Part shown: piece by piece, positions 21,926 through 35,408 of the stretch
Numbering within the stretch: position 1 is the first letter of the stretch
Layout: every line of letters starts with the position of its first letter
From: Candidatus Sericytochromatia bacterium
Lineage (GTDB): Bacteria; Cyanobacteriota; Sericytochromatia; S15B-MN24; UBA4093
Direction: 5' to 3'
DNA length: 64,000 nucleotides
NCBI GenBank assembly: GCA_036676985.1
Contig: JAKFBU010000027.1
Coordinates: forward strand, 32,001 to 96,000
Program-made: the position numbers and the translations under genes
Notes under the pieces: model-generated
Databases searched by the model: none
What the model was told of the DNA's origin: nothing
What the model saw: only the letters and a program-made list of their open reading frames with translations

Positions 21926-22158
21926 CGACAGGTACGGGACGCCGCCTTCTGGTCGGCGTTCCGGGGCCTGGTGACTCCCTACCGAGCTCCTCATTCGACC
22001 AACCTACCGCAGCAACGGGCCGGCTCTCAGGAGCCGGCCCGTCGCGTGGCCGGGTATCCTGCTTGCTGCTCCGGACCGTGCCCGGTCTCGTGTTATAGAT
22101 CGACCGGCGATGGGGAACGCCGAGCGTATCGATCGCTCGCCAGCAAGTGAGGGGGCGC

Positions 22159-24918
22159 ATGATGCGGACCGGGGTCACGACGGACCAGCTCGAGGGATGC
22201 TTCGAGCGGGACTTCCGATTCCTGCTGGACACGTTTCGCGGGTTGCTCGAGGGCCTCGGGGAGCCCCTCGTCCGCTACCTCCCGTGGCAGGGGCGCCCGC
22301 CCGACGTGGCGGACGTGACCTGGCTCCAGGACGCCGAGCGACTCATGCAGCTGCATTCCATCTCTTTCTCGCTGCTCAACCAGGCCGAGGACAGCGCGTC
22401 CGTCGAGGCGCGGCGCCAGCGCGAGGCGGTGGAGGGCATCGGCCAGGAGCCGGGCCTGTGGGGGCATGCCCTGAAACGCATGCTAGCGGCCGGGCTCGAA
22501 CCGGCCCGGATCGCCGATGAGCTCGCCCTGCTCTGGGTCGAGCCCGTGCTCACGGCGCACCCGACCGAGGCCAAGCGGGCCACCATCCTCGAGCACTACC
22601 GGGATCTCCATGGCCTCTTGATGGAGCGCATCCATCCCATGACGCCGCTCGAGGATCGCGACAACCGGGACCGGACCGGGCGCGTGCTCGAACGCATCTG
22701 GCGCACGGGCGATATCTTCCTGGAGAAGCCCGACGTGGCCTCGGAACTGAGGAACGTCCTCTACTACCTGCGGGAGGTCTTCCCGTCGGCCGCGGCCGTC
22801 ACGCGCCGACGGCTGCGGGTCGCCTGGGAGGAGGCGGGGCTCGATCCGGCGACCCTGCACGTCATGCCGCTCCTGTCCTTCGGGGACTGGGTCGGGGGCG
22901 ATCGTGACGGCCACCCGCTCGTGACCGCCGAGGTCACGCAGGGGACCCTGCACGAGCTGCGCCTCAACGCCCTTGTCGGGATCAACCGGCAGCTCAACGA
23001 TCTCGCCGAGCACCTGAGCCTCTCGGCTCGCCTGCAGGAGCCCCCTCCCCCCCTGGTCGCACGGATCGAGACCCTCAAAGAGCAGCTTGGAGCCAGAGGC
23101 CTCCAGGCCATCGAGCGCAACCCGGAGGAGCCGTGGCGCCAGCTCCTGAACCTCATGATCGCGCGGCTGCCCGTGGACGTGGCGCGCCGCCATGCGCTCA
23201 AGCTCAACGAGTTCGAGGGATCCTACCGTTTTGCCGACGAGCTGATGCTGGATCTGCGTCTCTTGCAACAGTCGCTGTGCGTGGTGGGGGCGTCACACCT
23301 CGGCGAGGCCGAGGTCCAGGACACCCTCGACTGGCTGCGGGCGACGGGGTTCCATCTGGCCGCCCTGGACATCCGCCAGAACAGTCGGTTTCACGACAAG
23401 GCCGTCGCCCAGCTCCTCTTGGCGGCCGGGCTCGACGGCACGGGTTACGCCGAGTGGCCGGAGGAGCGCCGTCTTGAGTTCCTGAACGCGGAGCTCCGCT
23501 TCATGCGCCCGTTTGCCCTGTCTTCCCGCTCCATCGGTCCCGAGGCCGACGCGGTGCTCGGCACCTATCGCGTGCTGGCCGCCCATGCCGACCGCTACGG
23601 CCGCGAGGGTCTGGGGGCGCTCATCGTGAGCATGACGCGCGGCCTCTCGGATCTGCTGGCGGTCTACCTGCTCGCCCGAGAGACGGACCTCGTGACCTCC
23701 GGCCCGGATGGCCTGGCCTGCAAGCTGCCCATCGTACCGCTCTTCGAGACCGTCGACGACCTGGAGCGAAGCGCCGGCATCATGGCCGCCTTCCTCGCCC
23801 ATCCCATGACGCGCCGCAGCATGGCCTACCAGGTCGGGACGGTCGGGCAGGATCGCCCCATGCAGCAGGTGATGGTCGGCTACAGCGACAGCACCAAGGA
23901 CGGCGGCATCCTGGCGGGACAGTGGCATCTGTATCACGCCCAGGAGGCCCTGACGGAGGTGGGACGCCAGGCGTCGGTGGTCATTCGCTTCTTCCACGGG
24001 CGAGGGGGGACCATCAGCCGTGGGGCCGGCCCCACCTATCGCTTCTTCGACGCCCTTCCGCCGGGATCCGTGCAGGGAGCCATCCGCATGACCGAGCAGG
24101 GCGAGACCATCGCCCAGAAGTACGGCAACCTTTCCCAGGCCGCTTACAACCTGGAGCTCCTCATGGCCAGCGCCGCCGAGGTCTCCTTCCTCAAGGAGCG
24201 ACCCGCAGCCCTCGAGCCAGACGTCGCATCGGTCATGGAGCGGCTGGCCGTCCTGAGCCGGGAGGCCTACGAGGCCTTGATCCGCGACCCCGGCTTCATG
24301 ACGTTCTACTCGCAGGCCACGCCCATCGACGCCATCGAGGAGAACCGGATCGGCTCGCGGCCGTCCCGGCGCACCGGGCTCCGGACGCTAGCGGACCTGC
24401 GGGCCATTCCCTGGGTGTTCAGCTGGTCCCAGTCGCGCTTCCACCTGCCGGGCTGGTTCGGGGTCGGCACCGCCCTCGAAACCTTGAAGCGAACGGACCC
24501 GGGGGTGTTCGAGACCCTGCGCACCCGGGGCATGCAGTGGCCGTTCCTCGCCTATGTCCTCACCAACGTCGAGACGAGCGTCAACACGGCGGACCTGCAG
24601 GTCATGCGGCAGTACGCGGCCCTGGTGGCGGACGCGGCGGTCCGCGAGCGCCTCATGGGCGTCATGGAGGCCGAGTACGAGCGGTGCCGCCGTCTCCTCC
24701 AGGAGCTGTTCGAGACGCCGTTCGCCGAGCGCCGCCCCCTGCTCCACCGCTCGTTCGAGCTGCGCGCGGAGCCCCTGCGCTTCCTGCACCGCCTTCAGAT
24801 CGAGCTGTTGCGCGAGTGGCGCGCCTTCGACCGGAAGGGCCCGGCGGAGGATGCCGCGCTGCGGCGGGTCATGATGTCCCTCAACGCGATCGCGAGCGGC
24901 CTGCGCTCAACGGGCTAG
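22159..24918 (+). CDS. ppc: phosphoenolpyruvate carboxylase
   Basis: VLTAHPTE, GGDRDGHP, MVGYSDSTKDGG, FHGRGGTISRG, LRAIPWVFSWSQSR, C-terminal GLRSTG. Confidence 0.96.
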   Translation: MMRTGVTTDQLEGCFERDFRFLLDTFRGLLEGLGEPLVRYLPWQGRPPDVADVTWLQDAERLMQLHSISFSLLNQAEDSASVEARRQREAVEGIGQEPGLWGHALKRMLAAGLEPARIADELALLWVEPVLTAHPTEAKRATILEHYRDLHGLLMERIHPMTPLEDRDNRDRTGRVLERIWRTGDIFLEKPDVASELRNVLYYLREVFPSAAAVTRRRLRVAWEEAGLDPATLHVMPLLSFGDWVGGDRDGHPLVTAEVTQGTLHELRLNALVGINRQLNDLAEHLSLSARLQEPPPPLVARIETLKEQLGARGLQAIERNPEEPWRQLLNLMIARLPVDVARRHALKLNEFEGSYRFADELMLDLRLLQQSLCVVGASHLGEAEVQDTLDWLRATGFHLAALDIRQNSRFHDKAVAQLLLAAGLDGTGYAEWPEERRLEFLNAELRFMRPFALSSRSIGPEADAVLGTYRVLAAHADRYGREGLGALIVSMTRGLSDLLAVYLLARETDLVTSGPDGLACKLPIVPLFETVDDLERSAGIMAAFLAHPMTRRSMAYQVGTVGQDRPMQQVMVGYSDSTKDGGILAGQWHLYHAQEALTEVGRQASVVIRFFHGRGGTISRGAGPTYRFFDALPPGSVQGAIRMTEQGETIAQKYGNLSQAAYNLELLMASAAEVSFLKERPAALEPDVASVMERLAVLSREAYEALIRDPGFMTFYSQATPIDAIEENRIGSRPSRRTGLRTLADLRAIPWVFSWSQSRFHLPGWFGVGTALETLKRTDPGVFETLRTRGMQWPFLAYVLTNVETSVNTADLQVMRQYAALVADAAVRERLMGVMEAEYERCRRLLQELFETPFAERRPLLHRSFELRAEPLRFLHRLQIELLREWRAFDRKGPAEDAALRRVMMSLNAIASGLRSTG

Positions 24919-24997
24919 CTGGCTCGCTTGACCGCCGTTCGGAAACGTGGGCTAATGTGCCTGCTTTCCACGGCTGCGCTTGTTCAAGGAGGTGTCC

Positions 24998-25393
24998 ATG
25001 AGCTTTCACACCAACATTCTGCAGGCCGCCCGCGACAACGGGTACTTCCGCAAGGAGCTCCACACGACGGAGCGATCGCAGGTGGTCGTCATGAGCATCG
25101 AGCCGGGCGACGACATCGGCGCCGAGGTCCACGACCTCGACCAGGTGCTGGTCTTCGTCGCGGGCACCGGCGAGTTCCAGGTGGGCGACCAGAAGGGCAA
25201 GGTCTCTCCCGGTGACGTGGTCGTCGTCCCCGCCCATGCGGAGCACAACTTCGTCAACACGGGCCGGGAGCCCATGAAGCTCTTCACCGTCTACGCGCCT
25301 CCCGAGCACGCCCCGGGGACGATCCACCGGACCAAGGCCGAGGCGGAAGCGGCCGAGGCAGAAGAGCACGGCCGAGAGCACGCTCGTCACTAG
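24998..25393 (+). CDS. cupin domain protein
   Basis: IGAEVH...DQ, PGDVVVVPAHAEHNFVNTG, KLFTVYAPPEH; AGGAGG RBS. Confidence 0.88.
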   Translation: MSFHTNILQAARDNGYFRKELHTTERSQVVVMSIEPGDDIGAEVHDLDQVLVFVAGTGEFQVGDQKGKVSPGDVVVVPAHAEHNFVNTGREPMKLFTVYAPPEHAPGTIHRTKAEAEAAEAEEHGREHARH

Positions 25394-26448
25394 CGCGCGC
25401 GTTCGCCCGACGTCACTCCTGTAGCGCCCTGTCGTCCGGCAGGGCGTTCGGGGTTTCGCAGCCAGGCGATGGTGTCGCGGAGCGTCTCGTCGGCCGGGCG
25501 AGCCCGGAAGCCCAGGTCCGGCTCGGCATACAGGGATCGCAGCCCCCAGTGGCGCGCGCCCATCTCGAGGACGACCGGGTCCGGTAGCAGGTGCAGGGCC
25601 CGCTTGCCGAGTGTCTGGTTGAGCATCGCGAGCGCCCACACGAGCCCGCTCGGCGCGTACCAGCGCGGCAGGGGCACCTCCCCGAGCCTGGCGACCATGC
25701 CGAAGAAGTCCGCGAGCGTGCTCTGGCAGCCCGGCGTGTGGTACACGGGCCGCGGCTGCGGGATCTCGAGGGCCCTGACGAGAGCCGGAGCGAGGTCCCG
25801 GATGTCCACGAAGTGCATGCCACCCCTCAGCAGGAAGGGGACGCGGCGCCGGAGGACCCGCGTGACGTTGCTCGTCGAGCGGGCGCGGTGGTCCCGGGGG
25901 CCCAGCACGACCGGCGGCCGGATGATCACGAGCTCCACGCCGAGTTCCCCGGCCAGTTTTCGTGCGGCCGCTTCGGCCTGAATCTTGGAGTGGTAGTAGG
26001 GCCAGTCTTTAACTAGCTCCGTGCAGTAAGGCGCTTCCTCGTCCGCCCGGCTCTCCTGCTCCTTGAAACAGCCGACGGTGCCCGAGGTCGAGACGAACAC
26101 CAGCCGGCACCGGTAGCGGGCCGCGAGCCGCACCATGGCGAGCGTGCCCTCGACGTTGGTGCGGATCATGGCCTCCGGCGACCGGCGGCTGTGCTGGACG
26201 ACGGCCGCCAGGTGCAGGATGCCGCCGAGCCCGTCGAGCAGGGGATCCGTGCCCCACCCGGACGTCTCGAGCAGGCCCCCTTCGATCGCGGGCACGGGAC
26301 CCAGGTCCTGCTGCCAGGACGTCGCTTCCCAGGTCGCGCGATCGCGCACCAGGGCGACGGGCTTCCACGAGGGCTCGCCCTGGAGCGCCTCCAGCACGTG
26401 GCGGCCGAGAAAGCCGCTCGCCCCCGTGATCAGCAGCGGCCGGCTCAC
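25390..26448 (-). CDS. extended SDR (NAD-dependent epimerase/DFR-like); candidate alkyl/acyl-DHAP reductase
   Basis: TGASGFLG, HLAA, YYHSK, IRPPVVLGP, FVDIRD; GTG start overlaps the upstream stop (GTGA). Confidence 0.85.
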   Translation of the reverse strand: MSRPLLITGASGFLGRHVLEALQGEPSWKPVALVRDRATWEATSWQQDLGPVPAIEGGLLETSGWGTDPLLDGLGGILHLAAVVQHSRRSPEAMIRTNVEGTLAMVRLAARYRCRLVFVSTSGTVGCFKEQESRADEEAPYCTELVKDWPYYHSKIQAEAAARKLAGELGVELVIIRPPVVLGPRDHRARSTSNVTRVLRRRVPFLLRGGMHFVDIRDLAPALVRALEIPQPRPVYHTPGCQSTLADFFGMVARLGEVPLPRWYAPSGLVWALAMLNQTLGKRALHLLPDPVVLEMGARHWGLRSLYAEPDLGFRARPADETLRDTIAWLRNPERPAGRQGATGVTSGERAR

Positions 26449-29117
26449 CGGACCACCTCGGCCACGGCCGGCGTCGCGACCCACTGGATCTCCTCGCCCG
26501 GCCAGCGACAAGCGTCGGCATGGGCCGGGAGCGCCCGGGCCTCGGGGCCCCAGGTGTAGGCGCCGCCCTCGAGGACGAGGATCCCGCGCTGGACCATGTC
26601 GTCGAGGGCCGCCTCCACCTCGGGCCGGAAGGCCGTCGGAAGGGCTGCGAGCACGTCCCGCACCCCGCAGCGCAGGTCCCGGTCCAGGAAGGCCCCCAGG
26701 TAGCGGGCCACCTCCGCGTGGTCCCGGCACACCGGCTCGAACAGGGCGCGCAGGAGCGCCCCCGGCACGGGCTCCGCGCCGGGTACCCGCGCCGCGTAGC
26801 CGTTTCGAGCCACGTGGCTGCGGATCACGGGATGCTCGGATAGCTGGCGAACGGCATCCGCGTAGAAGGCATGCTCCCACTGCTGGCGCAGGCTGCGCTC
26901 CTGCAACGGATCGGCCGCCTCCTTGAGGGGCAGGACGCTGTCGAGCACCGGGACCCCGCGTGCTCGGAGCAGGCGGGCCAGGTCGCGGACCTGCAGCCCC
27001 GTCTCCGGGTGTGCGGAGAGGAACGCCCGCAGATGATACTCCGTCGCCACCGACGCCGCCTGCAGCTCGCCCATGACCGCCCGGCTCAGGTCCGGTACGT
27101 CCGTCTCGGGCCCGAGCGTGAGGGGCCGGCCGCAGGCTACGTGGACCCGGCCAAGCCGCACGTGGCCGCGCCACAGGTGACCGAGCCACTGGAGCACGGG
27201 GCCCAGGCGGTGGGTCGTGTCGGAGCCCCCGCGCAGCTCGCGCAGGAACGCCGCCTCCTCGGGGATGCGGTCATAGCTGATCATGACGGGCAGGATGCGA
27301 CAGGGCTGCTGGGTGCCTTGCAGGGCCCGCAGGAGGCCGCGCCGGGGTGCCAGGAACCGGCGCGAGCGGCTGCGCGTTCCCTCGATGAAGAAGGTCAGGG
27401 CCTGACGCCGCGTCACCAGCTCACCCACGCGGCGCGTGAGCTCCGGGTCCTCGCGGCCCAGGCCGCGCTTGATGTAGAAGGCCTGAGCCCAGCGCAGCAG
27501 CTCCCCGAGGAGGGGGATGCGGGCGAAGTCCTCGGTGGCCGCGATGTGCGGCAGCGGGAGCTTGAGGTCGGGCCAGGTGAAGAAGAGGTAGGGGCTGATG
27601 AGGAAATCCGCGTAGCTCCGGTGGCTGGGCACGACGACGAGCAGCTCGTCGGGACTTGCCCCCTCCATGGCGGCCTGGAAGGAGGCCTTGTCGACGGTGA
27701 CCAGGTCGGTGCCGCGCCGGAAGGCCTTGCGCAGGAGGAAGCCGAGCACCCGGTGCGTCGCGTTCCCGTTCGGCTGCCTCAGCGCCCAGAGGAGGTCGCC
27801 GCCCGAGGCCTGGTGCTGCTTGCCGCCCATCGACACCTGGTCTTCGCCGCGGCGCAAGAGGTGCCGGTGGATGCCGCGGGCGATCGTCTCGAAGTAGGCC
27901 ACGGTGTCGAAGGTCGGATCGTGCCGGGTATCCGACGATCGGAAGTCGAAGGTGCGGTGCGTGAAGTACCGGAAGCCCCGATTCAGGTAGAGCAGCCCGC
28001 CGAGCAGACGCTTCAGGGCCCGGGCCTGCTTCTTCTGGCCGAAGAGGGTGGCCGCGGCGAGGGCCGTGCCCCATTTCAAGCGGTGGTGAACGAACTCCAG
28101 CACGTGCAGCCGTGCGTTCGCGGGGCCCACGTGCACGAAGCCCGCCCGCGGCCCCACCGGAAAGCGATCGAAGTAGGGGACGTGGACGTCGCAGATCTGG
28201 CGGATGGTGAGCGCGCGCGCGAGGCCCGCCACCGCGTAGCGGATCCGCACCTCGTCGGTGCTCGGCGCGTCGAAGGCCGCGTCGAGCACGCGCTCGGCGA
28301 CCTCGTCGCACGGCACGATGTCGAGCCGGACGTCAGGATCGACGCCCAGCACCCGGAGGTAGCCCATGCCATACAGGGCCACGAAGCCCGCAAAAGCCGC
28401 CTTGCTGTCGATCCAGCCTGCGAACGGGAAGCGTCGGCACGCCGAGATGATGCTCGGCCGCACGATGGTCAGGGGCACGTGGCCGTGCCGGGCGACCAGG
28501 AGGTGCTCGGCGATGCACTTGGTGAGCGTGTAGGTATTCGCATGGCCCGAGGCTGCGAGCATGGCGGTCTGGCTCGCCGTCCCGTCGAGGATGCTCCGGT
28601 AGGCGTCCTCGGCCGACAGGGGCAGGGGGGCGAGTTCTTCACCGAAGGCGCGCGTGCCTCCCGGATGGGGAGAGACATAGGCGGTCGAGACATCGACCAT
28701 GGCCCGCAGCTGAACGCAGCCCTTGGCGAACTCCAGGACGTTCAGGGCGCCCGTGATGTTGGATTCCGCCGCCTCGGGCAGCGGCAGGTCGAAGTCCACC
28801 GAGGCCGCGCAGTGGATGACCCGGTGCACGTTCTTCTGGAGAAGCTCGCGATCGCCCCCCGAGAGGGCGAGATCCGCGGCCGTCAGGTCGCCCGCCACGG
28901 GCCGGCACCATGTGGACCAGTCCTCGGGCAAGAGCCGAAAGCACTCGGAGGACACGATCTCCTGCTCGAAGCGCTCTTCCGGCGTGCGGCCGCGCTTGGG
29001 GCGGATGAGGACGTAGACGGTCCCGAGGCCCAGCTCCTCGCGCCGGCGCATCAGCTCGGCGAGGACGACCTTGCCGACGAAGCCCGTGCAACCCGTGACG
29101 AACAGGGTTTCCCCCAT
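26445..29117 (-). CDS. bifunctional fatty acyl-CoA reductase / DHAP(G3P) acyltransferase (FARAT-like fusion, about 890 aa)
   Basis: FAR half: TGCTGFVGK, IHCAASVDF, VSTAY, NTYTLTK, IVRPSII, PFAGWID. Acyltransferase half: PSHRSYADF (HX4D), AFYIKR, FFIEGTRSR, PVMISYDR. Confidence 0.9.
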   Translation of the reverse strand: MGETLFVTGCTGFVGKVVLAELMRRREELGLGTVYVLIRPKRGRTPEERFEQEIVSSECFRLLPEDWSTWCRPVAGDLTAADLALSGGDRELLQKNVHRVIHCAASVDFDLPLPEAAESNITGALNVLEFAKGCVQLRAMVDVSTAYVSPHPGGTRAFGEELAPLPLSAEDAYRSILDGTASQTAMLAASGHANTYTLTKCIAEHLLVARHGHVPLTIVRPSIISACRRFPFAGWIDSKAAFAGFVALYGMGYLRVLGVDPDVRLDIVPCDEVAERVLDAAFDAPSTDEVRIRYAVAGLARALTIRQICDVHVPYFDRFPVGPRAGFVHVGPANARLHVLEFVHHRLKWGTALAAATLFGQKKQARALKRLLGGLLYLNRGFRYFTHRTFDFRSSDTRHDPTFDTVAYFETIARGIHRHLLRRGEDQVSMGGKQHQASGGDLLWALRQPNGNATHRVLGFLLRKAFRRGTDLVTVDKASFQAAMEGASPDELLVVVPSHRSYADFLISPYLFFTWPDLKLPLPHIAATEDFARIPLLGELLRWAQAFYIKRGLGREDPELTRRVGELVTRRQALTFFIEGTRSRSRRFLAPRRGLLRALQGTQQPCRILPVMISYDRIPEEAAFLRELRGGSDTTHRLGPVLQWLGHLWRGHVRLGRVHVACGRPLTLGPETDVPDLSRAVMGELQAASVATEYHLRAFLSAHPETGLQVRDLARLLRARGVPVLDSVLPLKEAADPLQERSLRQQWEHAFYADAVRQLSEHPVIRSHVARNGYAARVPGAEPVPGALLRALFEPVCRDHAEVARYLGAFLDRDLRCGVRDVLAALPTAFRPEVEAALDDMVQRGILVLEGGAYTWGPEARALPAHADACRWPGEEIQWVATPAVAEVVR

Positions 29118-29121
29118 GGTC

Positions 29122-30936
29122 CTACACCGTTTCCTTCCCGGCGGCATGGAGGTTTCCGGCGCCGAACACGTTCTGCGGATCGAGGGCTTCCTTGGCGGCC
29201 TGGACGCCGCGCAGGGCCGCGGGCGACATGATGCGCGGCAGGAACTCCTGCCGGAGCTTGCCGACTCCGTGGTGATGGGACAGCGAGCCGCCGTTCGCGA
29301 GGACCTCCTCGCGGGCCGCCACCTCGATCGCGTGGTAGGTGCCGCTCGGGTCCTCGACGCCCTGGTAGCCGTAGGCGAAGTAGAAGTAGACGGCCGCCCC
29401 CGTGTCGTAGACCTGGGTGACCCGGCACGAGATGAAGGGCTTGCCGGGCAGGTGGCGGGCCGCATGCTCCTTGGCGATGCGCTGCTTGACGTTGGCGCAG
29501 AGGCCGGCGACCCGGCTCCAGGGCACGGACGTCTCGAAGGACTCGGCGAGGAACCAGTGGTTCATGACGAAGTCCCGGATGTAGGCGATGCCGTAGGTCA
29601 GCTGGTAGCCTCGCTTGCCGTTGTCGGGGCCGGCCTTCATGCCGCCATGGCGCTTGGCGAGCTCGTAGACGAGCGCCTCCTGCTGGGCGACCTCGGTCCG
29701 GGAGCCTTCGAACACGAGCGTGCAGGCGACCATGCGGTCCGGCTCGAAGCCGAGGACCTTGGTGACGAGCACCTTCTCGAGCTTGCTCTTGAGGGCCTTG
29801 AAACCCTTCGAGACGGGCTTGAGGGCGATACCGAACTGGAACTGCAGGTTGTCGACCAGGCGGACGCTGGCAGGGGCCCGGCCCGTCTGGGCGAGGTCGT
29901 ACATGAAGCGGGTGCCAGCCTCGAAGTCCTTGAAGAGCACCGAGCCGAACTTCTGGACCTCGGGCAGCGGAAACAGCTTCACGACCGCCGAGGTGATGAT
30001 CCCGAGGTTGCCTTCCGAGCCGAACCACCAGCGTCGGGGATCCAGCCCCGTCGACTCGCGGGGCAGGGCCGCATGCCGCTCGATCTTGCCGAGGGACGTG
30101 ACGGCCGTGAGGTCGAGGACCAGGTCCTCGATGTTCCCGTAGCGGTTCTTCTTCATCCCGCTCGCATGGGTCGAGATCCAGCCCCCCAGGGTCGAGAACT
30201 CGACGGAGTCGGGCTCGTGGCCCATGGTGAACCCGTACTCGGCCAGCTGCTGCATGATCGTCCGGCCCACCGCGCCTGCCTGGATGCAGGCCATGCGGTT
30301 GATGGGATCGATCCACAGGATGCGGTTCATGCGGCGCGTGTCGAGCGAGACGATGACGCGTTGCTCGTCCGCCGGGCAGCGGAGCGCCTCGGTGACGTTG
30401 GTGCCGCCCCCGAAGGGGATGATCGAGGCGCCGTGACGCTTGGCAGCCTCCACGACGGCCACCACCTGGTCCTCGTCGGTCGGGTACACGACGACGTCCG
30501 GCACGCGCGGCAGCCTGCCGTGCTTGATGGCGAACATGTCCGCCTGCGTGTGACCGTGACCGTGACGCAGGCGCACCTTGGGCTCCTGGCTGATCTGGTC
30601 CTCCGACAGCGCGCTCCGCAACTCGGCGAGCAGCCCGGGCGCGGCCTTGGGCTCGGGAATGGCCGGGGGGTAATGGGGCTCATGCCGATCGTCCGGCTCG
30701 ACCGGGAGCCCCACGACGCCCCGGAACCAGGGCAGGAGGTTGGGAAGCTCGTGGCCGCTGAGATCGGGGTAGCGCTCGCCCGTCACCTCCACGTGCCCGC
30801 GGGCGTTGACGCGAAAGGCCGTGTCCCGGAAGCCCCAGACGTCCAGGCTCTCCTCGTCCCGAGGCTCGGCGGGCGGCGGCGGCGGGTAAAGACGCCCTTG
30901 GTGCGAGGCGTCGGCGAGGTTGGTGGTCGAGTTCAT
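29122..30936 (-). CDS. agps: alkyl-dihydroxyacetonephosphate synthase (FAD-linked)
   Basis: GHEPDSVEFSTLGGW, ASGMKKNRYGNIED, APASVRLVDNLQFQFG, AYIRD, ESFETS, CRVTQVYD, YFYFAY, GGSLSHHHGVGKLR. Confidence 0.93.
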   Translation of the reverse strand: MNSTTNLADASHQGRLYPPPPPAEPRDEESLDVWGFRDTAFRVNARGHVEVTGERYPDLSGHELPNLLPWFRGVVGLPVEPDDRHEPHYPPAIPEPKAAPGLLAELRSALSEDQISQEPKVRLRHGHGHTQADMFAIKHGRLPRVPDVVVYPTDEDQVVAVVEAAKRHGASIIPFGGGTNVTEALRCPADEQRVIVSLDTRRMNRILWIDPINRMACIQAGAVGRTIMQQLAEYGFTMGHEPDSVEFSTLGGWISTHASGMKKNRYGNIEDLVLDLTAVTSLGKIERHAALPRESTGLDPRRWWFGSEGNLGIITSAVVKLFPLPEVQKFGSVLFKDFEAGTRFMYDLAQTGRAPASVRLVDNLQFQFGIALKPVSKGFKALKSKLEKVLVTKVLGFEPDRMVACTLVFEGSRTEVAQQEALVYELAKRHGGMKAGPDNGKRGYQLTYGIAYIRDFVMNHWFLAESFETSVPWSRVAGLCANVKQRIAKEHAARHLPGKPFISCRVTQVYDTGAAVYFYFAYGYQGVEDPSGTYHAIEVAAREEVLANGGSLSHHHGVGKLRQEFLPRIMSPAALRGVQAAKEALDPQNVFGAGNLHAAGKETV

Positions 30937-31000
30937 GGAGGTCCTGTCATGGCGGCCGCGCCGTGCGACGAGGTGGGCCGTCGTCGGCGGCTACCGAGCA

Positions 31001-31080
31001 AATTCTTAACTATGCGATAGCGAATAGATTAGACATTGTTAATATATACTGGAGTCTAAAAGGTTGCACGTCAACTGTTG
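31001..31080. promoter_or_regulatory. AT-rich divergent promoter region of the ether-lipid cluster
   Basis: Sharp AT-rich patch; TATACT at 31045-31050; inverted repeat TTAGAC(31029)-N19-GTCTAA(31059). Confidence 0.45.
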
Positions 31081-31100
31081 GGAAGGCCGGAGCACAAGAC

Positions 31101-32051
31101 ATGACTCTCCTGGGGATGCGCAGCGAACTGACGTCGAACGTGCTCTGGACCTTCCTGGGCATCCTCGTGCTGCACGTCGCCGTCACGCTGTCACCGACCG
31201 TGATTCGCCTGTTCCGCCCGGGGGGGGACTTCCGGGACTTCCACCGGAGGGCGCTCGGATGGTGGGTCGTCTCGGGATCGCTCGTGCTGGCCCTTGCGCT
31301 CGGCCCCTACGCCGCGCTCTTCTTCTTCGCCGCCGTCGGCTTGACGGCTTACCGCGAGCTGCTGGCGATCCAGCCCTTCGCCTTCAAGCGGGCCACCGTC
31401 CTCGTCGTCGCCGGTCTTATCGCGGTGCCCTACCTGATGATTCTCGCCCGACTGCCCGAGGCGGCGTCTTCCGGCGCCGCGGTCTGGTGCCTGCTCGCCA
31501 TTCCCCTCGTCGTGATGCTGCTCGAGCCGGGGGAGGGCTTCGCCCGCAAGGCCGGCGCCCTGTTGATGGCCTGGCTCGTGGCCGGCTACTGTCTGAGCCA
31601 GGTGCCCGCGCTCATGTGGCGAGCCGAGCCCCTGAATCCGGCGGGCGGCGGGGTGGGGCTCGTCATCTACATGGTCTTCCTCGCCCAGTTCAACGACTTT
31701 GCCCAGTACGTCTGGGGCAAGGTGGCGGGTCGCACGCCGATCGTGCCGGCGCTCAGCCCCAAGAAGACCTGGGCCGGGTTCCTGGGGGGGCTCCTGTCCA
31801 CCGCGGGCCTGGCCTGGCTTCTGGCCCCGGTGCTGACGCCCGTGCCGCGCGAGGTGGCCCCGCTCATGGGCATCGTCGTGGCAGCTGCGGGCTTCCTCGG
31901 GGACATCACGGTCTCGGCGATCAAGCGGGACGCAGGGGTCAAGGACGCCGGCAAGCTCCTGCCCGGCTTCGGCGGGGTCATGGACCGCGTTGACAGCCTC
32001 GTCTACGTGGCTCCCGGCTTCGGCCTCCTGCTGCGCTGGGTGTGCCCATGA
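31101..32051 (+). CDS. phosphatidate cytidylyltransferase (CdsA/YnbB-like)
   Basis: NDFAQYVWGK, SPKKTWAGFLGG, GDITVSAIKRDAGVKDAGKLLPGFGGVMDRVDS. Confidence 0.92.
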   Translation: MTLLGMRSELTSNVLWTFLGILVLHVAVTLSPTVIRLFRPGGDFRDFHRRALGWWVVSGSLVLALALGPYAALFFFAAVGLTAYRELLAIQPFAFKRATVLVVAGLIAVPYLMILARLPEAASSGAAVWCLLAIPLVVMLLEPGEGFARKAGALLMAWLVAGYCLSQVPALMWRAEPLNPAGGGVGLVIYMVFLAQFNDFAQYVWGKVAGRTPIVPALSPKKTWAGFLGGLLSTAGLAWLLAPVLTPVPREVAPLMGIVVAAAGFLGDITVSAIKRDAGVKDAGKLLPGFGGVMDRVDSLVYVAPGFGLLLRWVCP

Positions 32052-32698
32052 GCCAGCCGATCGAGCACGGCCGCGCGGTCCCTCCCGCACCCGCCGGGGG
32101 ATGGTTTCCGGCCTTCGCGCACCTGACTCCGCCCAACCTCGTGACGTCCGCCTCGGTCGCCCTGGCCTTCGCGGGGATCCTGCTGGTCGCCTCCGGCCGC
32201 CCGGACCTCGCCCTCCTCTGCGGCATGGCCGCGGTGCCCTGCGACCTCCTGGACGGCTTCCTGGCGCGCCGGATGGGACTGCAGTCGCGCTTCGGGGCAG
32301 CTCTCGACTCGCTGGCCGATGCCCTCTCCTTCTGCCTCCTGCCCGCGGTCGCGGCGTTCGGGGTGGGCCTGACGGCCTGGTACCAGCTGCTGCCGCTCTT
32401 CGCCTACGTCCTCGCCGGGGTCTGGCGCCTCGCGCAGTTCGACGAGGCGGGCATGACCCAATGGCGCGGCCGCCCGGCTTTCCAGGGCATGCCCACCCCG
32501 TACGCGGCGAGCCTCGTGTACCTGCTCGCTGTTGTCGGGTTGCGGTTCCCCACCGAGCCCATGCGCCTCGGCCTCACGGCGGCCGTCCTCGTGCTGGCGA
32601 TCGCCATGGTCGCGCGCCTCCCCTTCCCGAAGGGGGGATGGCACTACCGGGTCATGTGGATCCTCTTGCCCCTGGGAGCCGTGTTCGCGTGTCGCTAG
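32048..32698 (+). CDS. CDP-alcohol phosphatidyltransferase (PssA/Pcs-like)
   Basis: PNLVT, DLLDGFLARRMGLQSRFGAALDSLAD signature, RLAQF, FQGMPTP; ATGA overlap. Confidence 0.9.
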   Translation: MSQPIEHGRAVPPAPAGGWFPAFAHLTPPNLVTSASVALAFAGILLVASGRPDLALLCGMAAVPCDLLDGFLARRMGLQSRFGAALDSLADALSFCLLPAVAAFGVGLTAWYQLLPLFAYVLAGVWRLAQFDEAGMTQWRGRPAFQGMPTPYAASLVYLLAVVGLRFPTEPMRLGLTAAVLVLAIAMVARLPFPKGGWHYRVMWILLPLGAVFACR

Positions 32699-33918
32699 CT
32701 GCCGCCTCCCGCCTCTGGGGCCTGAACGGGGGCGTCTTCGTCTTCTCGTTCCTGCTCTCGGGCCTGACCAACGTCATTCCGCAGTTCATCCTGCTCGCGC
32801 TCGTGCCCGACCAAAAGGCCTTCTGGCTACCTGTCAGTCTGCTCGCGGCCACGGCCTGCGCCGTCCTCGGGACGCTGCTCGGGGGGAGCTGGTGGGAACG
32901 CCGGCTCTCCGGTCGCTGGATCCTGGTTCCCCTGCTCGGGGCGGTCGCGAGCTTCCTGGGGCTGTTCACGGCTCGTGAGCCTTGGCACTTCGTCCTGCTC
33001 GCCGCGTTGGCGACCGGTCTCGGCAACTTGCTCGTCACCCGCCTCGACCACCTGGCTACCCGGACGGCGACCGATTCCCAGCGGAGCTTCAACGATCGTC
33101 TCGGCACCGCCTGTCGGTTGCTGGGGATGCTGCTCGCACCCTGGTTCTTCACCCACCAGCTCCAGCACGGGATGGCCGTGACGCTGGCGCTCGGGCTGGG
33201 TGCGGCCGGCGTCCTGGGCGCATGGCTGGCGTCATGGCGGTCGGCCGCTGGGGCGGCGACGGTCGCGCCCCTCGCGGAAGCGTCGCTGCCCCTGGACCGG
33301 CGGGACTACCTGCTCCTGGGCCATGCCGTCAGCGTGTTCGCCGCGCTCTATCTCTTCGCGGCCAACCTCTCCTACTTCCTGCAGGACGCGCTCGCGTTCG
33401 ACCGCGCGACCCCACGTGCGGGCGTGCTCATCGTGGCGGTCTTCATGTCGGCCCTCGGCTCGGTGGCCGTCGCGTCCCTCGCCGCCCGGCGCCGGACGGG
33501 CGCCGCGACCGATCCGGGCGCCCTCGCCTTTCTGCCCGCGCTGCCCCTCGCCGTGGCCTGGGTCGCGTACGAGGGCCGCCTCGCGGTGACCTACACGGGC
33601 ATGCTCGCCATCGCGAGCGCCCTCGGGTTCGGCTACGGGGCCTTCCTCTTGGGTCTCAGGGACTTCGTCTCGCGCTCGGCCGCCCGAGGGAAGACGGTGC
33701 TGCTCACGATCTACAACAACCTGGCCAACGCGAGCGCCCTCCTGGCCTTTGCCTGCCTGTTCCTGCTCGACGGGCTCGCTCCCGGCTCGGGCGAGGGCTA
33801 CTACCTCGCATGGATGCGGCTGCTGGCGGCGGTGGCCACCGCCGGGATTCCCGCTTTCCTCATCGCCCGGAAGCGACATGGTTCCGATCGCCTCGTTCCA
33901 GGAGAATCACGCGCATGA
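32689..33918 (+). CDS. polytopic membrane protein, MFS-like (about 409 aa)
   Basis: About 12 hydrophobic segments in two halves; GTG start overlaps the upstream gene and the stop overlaps the next ATG; family not recognised. Confidence 0.65.
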   Translation: MSLAAASRLWGLNGGVFVFSFLLSGLTNVIPQFILLALVPDQKAFWLPVSLLAATACAVLGTLLGGSWWERRLSGRWILVPLLGAVASFLGLFTAREPWHFVLLAALATGLGNLLVTRLDHLATRTATDSQRSFNDRLGTACRLLGMLLAPWFFTHQLQHGMAVTLALGLGAAGVLGAWLASWRSAAGAATVAPLAEASLPLDRRDYLLLGHAVSVFAALYLFAANLSYFLQDALAFDRATPRAGVLIVAVFMSALGSVAVASLAARRRTGAATDPGALAFLPALPLAVAWVAYEGRLAVTYTGMLAIASALGFGYGAFLLGLRDFVSRSAARGKTVLLTIYNNLANASALLAFACLFLLDGLAPGSGEGYYLAWMRLLAAVATAGIPAFLIARKRHGSDRLVPGESRA

Positions 33919-35015
33919 CCACGATGCCCCCCGCCGGCGGGCAGCTAGACGATCCGACGGCAATCGACACCCTCGACGCCAAGACGCCCGGGGCCTACCG
34001 GGTCCTCATGGTCTCCCTGCGGACGTTCGCAAAGGCGGACGACTGCATCGGGGCATGGCAGGTGGTCACGACCCTGATCCTCACTGGCGGGGTGTTCGCG
34101 GCGATCGCCCTCGTCCAACCCCTAGCTGCCAAGTGGCTGTTGTTCCTGCCCCTGTGCTTCCTGCTGGTGCGCCTCTTCGTGCTGCAGCACGATTGCGGGC
34201 ACCTGAGCCTGTTCTCGAACCGGCGGGTCAACGACGTCGTCGGCATGGTCCTGTCCTTCGTCACGGGCGTCGCCTACGAGGCGTGGCGCACGGAGCACAA
34301 CTGGCACCACAGCCATCAGGCCAAGCTCAGCCATCGGGGCGTCGACCGCATGAACAGCCCCATGATGGCCGACGAGGCGGTACAGAGCCCGGACCTCGCG
34401 CAACTGAGAGTGCGCAAGATCAGCGTCCTCAACGTCTTCGTGCTGGGGGCGCTCAGCCTGGCCGTCCAACGCAAGCACCACGGCGCCTTCTTTCCGTTCC
34501 GTCCGAAGTTCCGCTGGCCGGTCCCCAACCGGGCGGCCCTCATCGCCAGCGTCCGCGTGACGAACCTCGTGCACGGGGCCTTCCACCTCGGGCTCCTGGC
34601 GCTCGTGGGCCCCTGGCTCTGGCTCGGCTTGATCCTGCCCGCCTACTTCTGCGGCGCGGGGCTGGGCGCCCTGCTCTTCTGGGTGCAGCACAACTTCGAG
34701 CGGACCTACCACGCCGAGGAGGCGAGCTGGAGCTTCGTCGAGGCCGGGCTGCGCGGCGCGAGCTACCTCAGGCTGCCGGGGATCTGGGGCTGGATCACGG
34801 CGTCCATCGGGATCCACCACGTCCATCACCTGAACGTGCTCGTCCCCAACTACCGCCTGGAGGCGGCCCGGCGCGCGGTGCCGGAGATCGCCGCCATCGC
34901 GCCCTTGAGCCGCGCGGACGTGCGCAAGTGCTTCACGCACGTCTTCTGGGACGCTTCCGAGGATCGGATGGTCGACTACGGCGCGCTCCGCTTCAACGCC
35001 TCCGGGCAGCCCTGA
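33915..35015 (+). CDS. membrane fatty-acid/lipid desaturase
   Basis: His boxes HDCGH, HNWHH, HHVHH plus VQHNFE and VPNYRL; ATGA overlap and GGAG RBS. Confidence 0.9.
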   Translation: MTTMPPAGGQLDDPTAIDTLDAKTPGAYRVLMVSLRTFAKADDCIGAWQVVTTLILTGGVFAAIALVQPLAAKWLLFLPLCFLLVRLFVLQHDCGHLSLFSNRRVNDVVGMVLSFVTGVAYEAWRTEHNWHHSHQAKLSHRGVDRMNSPMMADEAVQSPDLAQLRVRKISVLNVFVLGALSLAVQRKHHGAFFPFRPKFRWPVPNRAALIASVRVTNLVHGAFHLGLLALVGPWLWLGLILPAYFCGAGLGALLFWVQHNFERTYHAEEASWSFVEAGLRGASYLRLPGIWGWITASIGIHHVHHLNVLVPNYRLEAARRAVPEIAAIAPLSRADVRKCFTHVFWDASEDRMVDYGALRFNASGQP

Positions 35016-35040
35016 GCCTCGGGCCCAGGGCAGGGAGCGC

Positions 35041-35253
35041 CTAGGACTGACCTTGCTGGCGGGCCCGCCGGACCGTGACGAGCTCGCCGCCGATGCCCCA
35101 GTTGTCCGTCGGCACCTCGCTGATGAGCACGTGCGTGGTCGCGGGGTTCTTGTCCAGGAGATCCTGCAACAGCCGCGTGACGCCCTCCACGAGCTGGGCC
35201 TTCTGGTCGGGCGTGACCCCGTCGTCGGTCAGGTAGATGTGCACCAGGGGCAT
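35041..35253 (-). CDS. 4-oxalocrotonate tautomerase family protein
   Basis: N-terminal Pro (MPLVHI), QKAQL, NWGIGG; 70 aa; AAGGAG RBS. Confidence 0.9.
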   Translation of the reverse strand: MPLVHIYLTDDGVTPDQKAQLVEGVTRLLQDLLDKNPATTHVLISEVPTDNWGIGGELVTVRRARQQGQS

Positions 35254-35351
35254 GGGGGCTCCTTTCCTCTCAAACCGGTAAGCGTGCTTGCCTAACGGTA
35301 CCCCCAGGCCGCCCCGCGGTCGAGTCGCATGCGGGGCCCGCTCGTGATACA

Positions 35352-35366
35352 CTTACGAATCGTAAG
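35352..35366. promoter_or_regulatory. palindromic operator CTTACG-N3-CGTAAG, candidate HxlR-family site
   Basis: Perfect palindrome between the divergent tautomerase and HxlR genes. Confidence 0.6.
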
Positions 35367-35408
35367 CTAATTACCAGATACGAGCGACCGGGTGTCGAGG
35401 AGCGAGCA

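Follow-up and report, generated by a model that had tools for sequence, protein, structure and literature searches.

The fusion gene and its operon

We describe a three-gene operon in a 64,000-nucleotide stretch of DNA from Candidatus Sericytochromatia bacterium (GenBank assembly GCA_036676985.1, contig JAKFBU010000027.1, positions 32,001 to 96,000 of the forward strand). This whole stretch is hereafter called the window, and positions are counted from its first letter. The central gene encodes a fatty acyl reductase (FAR) joined to an acyltransferase of the type found in glycerol-3-phosphate (G3P) acyltransferase (GPAT) and dihydroxyacetone phosphate (DHAP) acyltransferase (GNPAT), a combination known as FARAT. 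It lies between a gene for an alkyl-DHAP synthase (AGPS) and a gene for an extended short-chain dehydrogenase/reductase (SDR), all three on the minus strand:

29122..30936, minus strand: operon gene 1, AGPS (alkyl-DHAP synthase) orthologue of 604 residues, with Pfam FAD_binding_4 and FAD-oxidase_C
26445-29117, minus strand: operon gene 2, FAR–acyltransferase fusion coding sequence, 890 residues, ATG at 29117 and TGA at 26445-26447
27798..29117, minus strand: FAR half of the fusion (residues 1-440), Rossmann NAD(P)H domain and helical FAR C-terminal subdomain, PF07993
26445..27797, minus strand: acyltransferase half of the fusion (residues 441-890 and stop), GPAT/GNPAT-type, PF01553
25390..26448, minus strand: operon gene 3, extended-SDR reductase of 352 residues, with Pfam Epimerase and NAD_binding_4, candidate acyl/alkyl-DHAP reductase

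An initial annotation, made from the sequence alone, had reported at 26445-29117 a single uninterrupted open reading frame (ORF) with the FAR motifs followed by the acyltransferase blocks PSHRSYADF and FFIEGTRSR. This description is borne out in full. The coordinates delimit exactly one coding sequence; its strand, which had been left unstated, is the minus strand, the plus-strand reading of the same interval being full of stops. A longer ORF of 1006 residues, opening at 29465, was dismissed: the first 116 codons run over the tail of the AGPS gene, read in a different frame, and no homologue is extended in this way. The N-terminus of the fusion protein, translated from the minus strand, reads MGETLFVTGCTGFVGK, and the two acyltransferase blocks occur in the contexts VVVPSHRSYADF and TFFIEGTRSRSR. 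In Pfam, NAD_binding_4 (‘Male sterility protein’, PF07993) covers residues 7-275 (E 9.8e-59) and Acyltransferase (PF01553) covers residues 490-614 (E 7.6e-17); both matches far exceed chance.

A FAR is recognized by an NAD(P)H-binding glycine motif together with a Ser/Thr...YxxxK catalytic set, and GPAT/GNPAT acyltransferases by blocks I-IV, namely HX4D, FxxR, EGTRS and a proline-containing block. The fusion holds the FAR domain first, with TGCTGFVGK for nucleotide binding, VSTAYV and YTLTK, and acyltransferase blocks I-IV second, in one unbroken polypeptide. Across an alignment of 33 homologues with 44-72% identity to the fusion, the invariant residues of the reductase half include G9, T11, G12, F13, G15 and K16, S144, T145, A146 and Y147, and Y196, T199 and K200. 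Those of the acyltransferase half include P497, H499, R500, S501, Y502 and D504 (HX4D), F547, R551 and G552, F576, E579, G580, R582, S583 and R584, and P610, Y615 and D616.

Assembly error does not explain the unbroken fusion. In another sample, a single 13.9-kb contig spans all of 25390-30936 and differs by 24 substitutions, with no indel, and in a run of a different study single pieces bridge the boundary between the FAR and acyltransferase halves (26782-28007) and the junction between the AGPS and fusion genes (28501-30936). The DNA of the operon is present in soil and groundwater metagenomes from at least two studies. Moreover, a database search with the fusion (8,000 scored candidates) gave 715 proteins at E <= 0.001; among the best 120 of these 715, all 120 contain both domains in 877-956 residues. 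The source labels of these listed matches include Myxococcota, Deltaproteobacteria, Gemmatimonadaceae, Marinimicrobia and Sericytochromatia, and proteins from metagenome-assembled genomes (MAGs) labelled Myxococcota fall in the same clade as the fusion, at 46-48% identity.

The three genes are tightly packed: the AGPS stop lies 4 nt ahead of the fusion ATG (29117), and the GTG start of the SDR gene overlaps the TGA stop of the fusion (GTGA, 4 nt). In a phmmer search of PDB sequences, residues 31-596 of the first protein match the mammalian peroxisomal alkyl-DHAP synthase 4bby with E 2.7e-175 (587 bits), followed by 2uuu with 281 bits; the best protein other than an AGPS is the glycolate oxidase 9qgz, with 108 bits. 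A loop of three consecutive histidines is a hallmark of AGPS, and the SLSHHHGVGK stretch of the window protein is aligned identically with 4bby. Judged by these matches, the oxidase upstream of the fusion is an AGPS orthologue. The solved protein nearest to the SDR is the putative oxidoreductase 3wj7, and the next are ketone and thioester reductases (dihydroflavonol reductase, a ketoreductase and cinnamoyl-CoA reductase), in line with a predicted role of the SDR in ketone reduction. The alkyl-DHAP reductase step is itself attributed to an SDR enzyme (PMC13256971).

This gene order is conserved. AGPS stands directly upstream and the SDR directly downstream in nine of ten fused genome loci (L001, L002 and L012-L017 among them), the exception being L011 of genome G027. 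Among metagenome loci we counted the ten that hold both fusion halves at >=40% identity. AGPS is upstream in nine of them, and the tenth starts inside the fusion gene. The SDR is downstream in six; the remaining loci comprise two that end inside the fusion, one in which no SDR occurs within 3.1 kb and one that is fragmentary.

A second AGPS-like FAD-linked oxidase is found elsewhere in the same genome (G000:C23:177308-178771, locus L027). It has 562 residues and is 33% identical to the window AGPS; its neighbours are an FGGY-family carbohydrate kinase and a DAO-type FAD oxidoreductase, with no ether-lipid genes within about 1.5 kb on each side. On the other side of the operon, a phosphoenolpyruvate carboxylase (PEPC) gene (22147-24918, plus strand) converges with the SDR gene. 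It is a second paralogue and shares 38% identity with the common copy at G000:C1. In G041 and G042 its orthologues (41% identical) are on the same strand as a stand-alone GNPAT-like acyltransferase gene, at a distance of about 140 bp, and in metagenome locus L041 a PEPC gene comes right after the AGPS–fusion–SDR genes. Being a second paralogue with a patchy distribution, the window PEPC was found unsuitable as a vertical marker of contig origin and congruence.

Fold, phylogeny and distribution of the fusion

An AlphaFold model of the fusion, built from the 33-sequence alignment, has a mean predicted local distance difference test score (pLDDT) of 88.1 and a predicted template modelling (TM) score (pTM) of 0.82. 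Its top Foldseek match in the PDB is the alcohol-forming rice fatty acyl reductase DPW (7eoz; E 7e-23, target TM score 0.68, 489 columns), followed by thioester-reductase domains, and its C-terminal half matches human GPAT1 (8e4y; E 1e-14, 594 columns). Both entries were recovered by sequence search too. The eukaryote-type FARAT/GNPAT marker models PF19277 (GPAT_C) and PF03015 (FAR_C) have no match in the fusion, even at E 10. Since the model aligns to the whole of DPW and to most of GPAT1, the corresponding regions exist in a divergent form.

Searching with the acyltransferase half among proteins of 247-788 residues gave 141 matches; the best 120 comprise the bacterial family, then two Trichoderma proteins, and nearly all of the other named matches listed are metazoan ‘dihydroxyacetone phosphate acyltransferase’ (E 1e-19 to 1e-15). 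Identity to the metazoan GNPATs is 32-44% over 31-47% of the acyltransferase half. The PlsB equivalog models of NCBIfam, on the other hand, match about 185-205 residues and give 99.9 bits for NF003441 (cut-off 610) and 91.1 bits for TIGR03703 (cut-off 618.5). With scores so far under the cut-offs, the fusion does not appear to be a PlsB.

The initial annotation had proposed separate domain phylogenies as a check. A tree of the acyltransferase core (57 rows, 326 columns, IQ-TREE quick search) separates the bacterial FARATs, eukaryote-type FARATs and metazoan GNPATs from Escherichia coli PlsB and four other bacterial PF19277 GPAT-like proteins, with a Shimodaira–Hasegawa-like approximate likelihood ratio test (SH-aLRT) support of 99; the same split has a support of 89 in a smaller tree. 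The eukaryote-type rows are two ciliate-code metagenome ORFs (L088 and L055) and unnamed database proteins of presumed eukaryotic origin. The database relatives of L088 carry PF19277, PF03015, PF07993 and PF01553. The acyltransferase domain thus appears to group with GNPAT/FARAT rather than with PlsB, with moderate support. Within this group the window protein lies in a bacterial clade of 31 rows (SH-aLRT 100), which also includes the Trichoderma proteins and sits on a long stem. As placed by this tree, the fusion family is a divergent bacterial branch of the GNPAT/FARAT group and not a close relative of the eukaryotic enzymes.

It should be noted that the Trichoderma acyltransferases (P0209 and P0213) score 240-309 bits to bacterial members and about 110 bits to the eukaryote-type FARATs. 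Their position fits the separate bacterial origin proposed for them in PMC13012113; in our small sample no donor lineage stands out. Their placement as sisters of the G012 and G024 sequences (SH-aLRT 91-94) was set aside, as both branches are long and BLAST identities are 33-41% to all bacterial members. The L055 and L088 contigs hold FARAT-like ORFs that are open only under the ciliate nuclear code, one of 1,167 residues with 12 reassigned codons (L088) and one of more than 959 residues with 19 (L055), and presumably derive from ciliate genes or their transcripts.

The host is a Sericytochromatia genome (G000) with an estimated completeness of 100% and contamination of 5.09%. A search for photosystem reaction-centre genes found none in it and did find them in a control Synechococcus genome. 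The fusion has a strong match in 22 of the 47 species genomes of the class. Its fused form occurs in 15, including one in which contig ends divide the gene. In 11 genomes, all of family f6, there is an extra stand-alone acyltransferase of about 470 residues (for example G028:C67:5356-6663), often besides a fused copy. Two further genomes have only a stand-alone reductase of about 465 residues (G005:C77:67646-68926 and G008:C47:39494-40774), which is 49-50% identical to the N-terminal half of the fusion; neither AGPS nor the SDR nor the acyltransferase has a match within about 9 kb of it. When 401 genomes of the phylum were sampled, the 22 with a match all belonged to Sericytochromatia, and the 354 from outside the class gave no match. 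The closest relative, G001, is of the same genus and has the three proteins at 73% (fusion), 87% (AGPS) and 77% (SDR) identity. Monophyly of the 14 acyltransferase rows of the class is marginally rejected by the approximately unbiased (AU) test (p-AU 0.029); since the group was defined with the tree already in view, this no more than hints at repeated acquisition.

The public record of G001 (locus L001) bears the genus label of a filamentous cyanobacterium, which looks wrong because the class placement disagrees with it. The class also holds genomes labelled Sericytochromatia and Blackallbacteria: one protein of G027 is 100% identical to an NCBI entry of ‘Candidatus Sericytochromatia bacterium’, and one of G028 is 100% identical to an entry of ‘Candidatus Blackallbacteria’.

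Proposed pathway, alternatives and the facing operon

Taken together, domains, motifs, fold, tree and neighbours make it very probable that the fusion is a bacterial FARAT, two enzymes in one polypeptide that supply AGPS in ether-lipid synthesis. In the proposed pathway, the FAR half would act as an NAD(P)H-dependent fatty acyl-thioester reductase and yield a long-chain fatty alcohol, while the acyltransferase half would acylate DHAP, in preference to G3P, to 1-acyl-DHAP; the acyl donor could be acyl-CoA or acyl carrier protein (acyl-ACP). AGPS would then swap the acyl group for the alcohol to give 1-O-alkyl-DHAP, and the SDR would reduce the sn-2 ketone to 1-O-alkyl-glycerol-3-phosphate. This product would enter normal phospholipid synthesis via PlsC-type acylation and, probably, the neighbouring CdsA and PssA-like enzymes described below. 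Ordinary G3P acylation seems to be provided separately, because the genome has a PlsY and none of its proteins reaches the cut-off of a PlsB model.

As for the final lipid, the PEDS1/CarF/FAD4 family (PF10520) was not found in the own genome, in G001 or in G027, and the same search gave matches in 14 of the 47 class genomes, a positive control. Since no PEDS1/CarF-family desaturase was found, saturated alkyl (plasmanyl) lipids are predicted rather than plasmalogens. A fused FARAT and PF10520 do occur together in seven genomes of the class (G029, G033, G036, G040, G041, G042 and G043), and AGPS adjoins the fusion in G029, G033 and G040. These seven may make plasmalogens aerobically, with PF10520 genes that may be PEDS1-like or FAD4-like.

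The operon faces a second one, on the plus strand, across a short intergenic region:

30937..31100: divergent intergenic region of 164 bp, AT-richer, between the AGPS start and the probable CdsA start ATG at 31101
31101..32051, plus strand: CdsA-like phosphatidate cytidylyltransferase, PF01148 (E 1.2e-50); frame open from GTG 30963
32042..32698, plus strand: CDP-alcohol phosphatidyltransferase, PssA-like, PF01066; overlaps the CdsA stop
32638..33918, plus strand: membrane protein, probably of major facilitator superfamily (MFS) type; start uncertain, 32638 or 32689
33915..35015, plus strand: DesA-like membrane fatty-acid desaturase, PF00487 (E 4.7e-23); ATG overlaps the stop of the preceding gene

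The CdsA-like protein scores 96.5 bits with the NCBIfam phosphatidate cytidylyltransferase model, under its cut-off; the best models for the PssA-like protein are archaetidylserine and phosphatidylserine synthase, both under their cut-offs; and the desaturase scores 163 bits with Delta(5) desaturase DesA, against a cut-off of 500, and has the histidine boxes HDCGH, HNWHH and HHVHH. Pfam and NCBIfam gave no match for the third protein. Its 30 nearest clusters by language-model features are all MFS transporters (score 0.98), which serves as a lead only. A sigma-70 consensus scan of 24800-35400 found no promoter-like site, hence none in 30937-31100, and terminator-like sites were at chance level.

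We may wonder whether the two operons form a unit. Orthologues of the desaturase (>=55% identity) were found only in G000, G001 and G027 of the 47 class genomes, and all three have a fused FARAT and no detected PF10520. In G000 and G027, the two of these with visible context, the desaturase and the CdsA gene are linked to the fusion gene, the CdsA copy of G027 (L011) being 51% identical. The two operons might then be a self-contained and possibly mobile ‘ether phospholipid island’, in which the DesA-like desaturase would have ether lipids as its substrates and might stand in for PEDS1/CarF without being orthologous to it. The products would be vinyl-ether lipids (plasmalogens), or lipids with a double bond at another place in the alkyl chain, formed by a family not known for it. 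We consider this unlikely: none of the ten metagenome FARAT loci shows linkage to a desaturase or CdsA gene, the family is one of ordinary acyl-lipid desaturases, and three related genomes are a small and non-independent sample.

Several observations weigh against the assignment of the fusion as a FARAT feeding AGPS. Its best NCBIfam model is PlsB, though far under cut-off, and pairwise scores of its acyltransferase core discriminate poorly, with 73-88 bits for metazoan GNPATs and 69.5 bits for E. coli PlsB. The two C-terminal models of eukaryote-type FARATs find nothing in it. The trees are ‘quick’ ones, with SH-aLRT support only, and include one PlsB and leave out animal GPAT1/2. The stem of the bacterial clade amounts to 2.5 changes per site, and on such a long stem function could have drifted. 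These points leave some room for an acyltransferase half that is a PlsB-type G3P enzyme, or a dual G3P/DHAP enzyme like the yeast Gat enzymes, which take both substrates (PMC7375469); the fusion would then feed ester lipids or wax-like products and its alcohol would be used elsewhere. The closeness of the PlsB and GNPAT scores and the rank of the PlsB model speak for it. Yet the equivalog scores are a small part of what the cut-offs demand, the tree places the domain with GNPAT/FARAT (SH-aLRT 99), PlsY is present for G3P acylation, and in nearly every locus the fusion is tightly coupled to an upstream AGPS, an enzyme that needs both acyl-DHAP and fatty alcohol. We therefore regard a PlsB-type or dual enzyme as very unlikely.

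The chemistry could also be as proposed and the products be other than bulk membrane phospholipids, namely neutral or specialized ether lipids such as alkyl-diacylglycerols, made under certain conditions as stress or developmental lipids. In Myxococcus xanthus, alkyl ether lipids such as TG-1 build up in development and the route through the AGPS MXAN_1676 is minor (PMC9131029), and the FARAT of Dictyostelium is needed for the storage lipid monoalkyl-diacylglycerol (PMC7375469). Nor was any RNA run listed among those containing this DNA that might point to constitutive expression. Here, however, the operon faces a CdsA–PssA-like operon, which would lead to CDP-activated phospholipids, and G027 too has a CdsA copy beside its fusion gene, so that products of this kind seem unlikely. 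A related caution comes from the same organism: the ElbD route dominates in M. xanthus, and disruption of MXAN_1676 lowers ether lipids only slightly (Lorenzen et al. 2014, as cited in PMC9131029), so the contribution of such an operon can be small.

Finally, the cluster could be an island that does nothing for the host, whether recently acquired by transfer, silent or decaying. Its patchiness within the class, where fused, acyltransferase-only and FAR-only forms are spread over 22 of the 47 genomes, and the marginal rejection of monophyly of its post hoc group would fit this. Against it, the three ORFs are intact, with invariant catalytic residues, the same-genus G001 retains the operon at 73-87% protein identity, and the contigs from another sample and another study differ by substitutions only, with no indels. 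A decaying island is extremely unlikely in our view, and a working FARAT that supplies AGPS is the reading that we retain.

Comparison with known systems

The nearest known counterpart is the operon of M. xanthus, which consists of MXAN_1676 (AGPS), MXAN_1675 (N-terminal part FAR1-like, C-terminal part GNPAT-like) and MXAN_1674 (NAD-dependent epimerase/dehydratase family) (PMC9131029, PMC13012113). As published, it has the same three gene products in the same order on one strand, with the FAR N-terminal to the acyltransferase. The likeness to MXAN_1675 rests on that description, the sequences compared here being Myxococcota-labelled MAG proteins, which weighs somewhat against pressing the parallel. 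The host here is a member of Sericytochromatia, not of Myxococcota, and the operon faces the CdsA–PssA–MFS–desaturase operon. Unlike in M. xanthus, neither a CarF/PEDS1-family gene nor an ElbD-type protein was found in the own genome with the queries used.

ElbD also has FAR-like and acyltransferase domains and acts in bacterial ether-lipid synthesis (PMC9131029). ElbD-type proteins, however, have about 1,450 residues with AMP-binding and carrier-protein domains; Pfam found neither AMP-binding (PF00501) nor carrier (PF00550) domains in the fusion, and ElbD-like proteins are distant matches of the ciliate-code FARAT. An ElbD-like route was not found in the own genome with the query used, the only other strong FAR-like match being the terminal reductase of a type I polyketide synthase (PKS). 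This PKS has 2,189 residues (G000:C30, L112 6064-12633, minus strand) in the order KS-AT-DH-KR-ACP, with a terminal NAD_binding_4 reductase. PlsB and mitochondrial GPAT1 have the same large-acyltransferase fold with the HX4D and EGTR blocks; the fusion differs from them by its FAR domain and its coupling to AGPS.

The novelty that the initial annotation implied for a bacterial fusion and operon does not stand in the light of the literature. The M. xanthus operon was first noted by Curtis et al. 2006 according to the 2022 review PMC9131029, and MXAN_1676 is cited as a bacterial agps in PMC13159169 too. A search of the GTDB is reported in PMC13012113 (PNAS 2026), where the fused protein is named FARAT in bacteria and eukaryotes. 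That study counts 73 bacterial genomes with all four enzymes, 61 of them Myxococcota and 12 in five other phyla, shows a collapsed ‘fully bacterial clade’ of 361 sequences and argues for transfer from Myxococcota to an early eukaryote. Its main text names neither cyanobacteria nor Sericytochromatia, and a literature search combining Sericytochromatia with ether lipids, plasmalogen or AGPS returned nothing relevant by title or abstract. The seven class genomes with both FARAT and PF10520 may be among its unnamed ‘12 genomes in five additional phyla’. The operon type was thus already known, and what is new here is a copy in a non-photosynthetic member of Sericytochromatia.

The same annotation saw in the fusion a special bearing on the direction of transfer between bacteria and eukaryotes. 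This expectation was not realized: in our trees a long stem leads to the purely bacterial clade that contains the fusion, apart from the eukaryote-type FARATs and metazoan GNPATs. The bearing of the fusion on the question is slight because of that long branch, and because published work has addressed the matter with much broader sampling. The fusion is one more data point and leaves unchanged the published view that the eukaryotic pathway originated in bacteria. There are more modest gains. The family can be better annotated, as its members are now labelled ‘SDR family oxidoreductase’ or ‘1-acyl-sn-glycerol-3-phosphate acyltransferase’, and the operon may help in interpreting alkyl glycerol ether lipids in soils and groundwater. 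It is also of mild interest that, in the phylum sample, the fusion is confined to Sericytochromatia, where fused and split forms are found together, where some genomes may have the complete four-enzyme set and where a lineage-specific linkage with the CdsA–PssA–MFS–desaturase genes occurs.

The part of the initial annotation that does hold is the functional parallel with eukaryotes: the fusion of a FAR with a GNPAT-like domain probably supplies both substrates of AGPS, as presumed for the FARATs of Tetrahymena thermophila and Dictyostelium discoideum, which have the same domain order (PMC7375469; for Tetrahymena, PMC13012113). Knock-outs of the D. discoideum enzyme (fatA) lose ether lipids (PMC7375469). 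The acyltransferase half belongs to the same superclade as the ciliate-code metagenome FARATs, and in tblastn pieces the fusion is about 27-35% identical to L055 and L088. It differs from the eukaryotic FARATs in size (890 residues against about 1,140-1,300) and in its C-terminus (...AEVVR), which has no peroxisomal targeting signal, and the PF19277 and PF03015 matches of the eukaryote-type proteins are not found in it. With the metazoan pair GNPAT and FAR1 it has in common the acyltransferase catalytic blocks and, in its N-terminal half, the fold of an alcohol-forming FAR, the two being separate enzymes in metazoans and fused here. The window would thus hold an animal-type ether-lipid route, with FAR, GNPAT and AGPS, packed into one compact operon of a Sericytochromatia genome; this class is the sister lineage, itself non-photosynthetic, of the oxygenic cyanobacteria.

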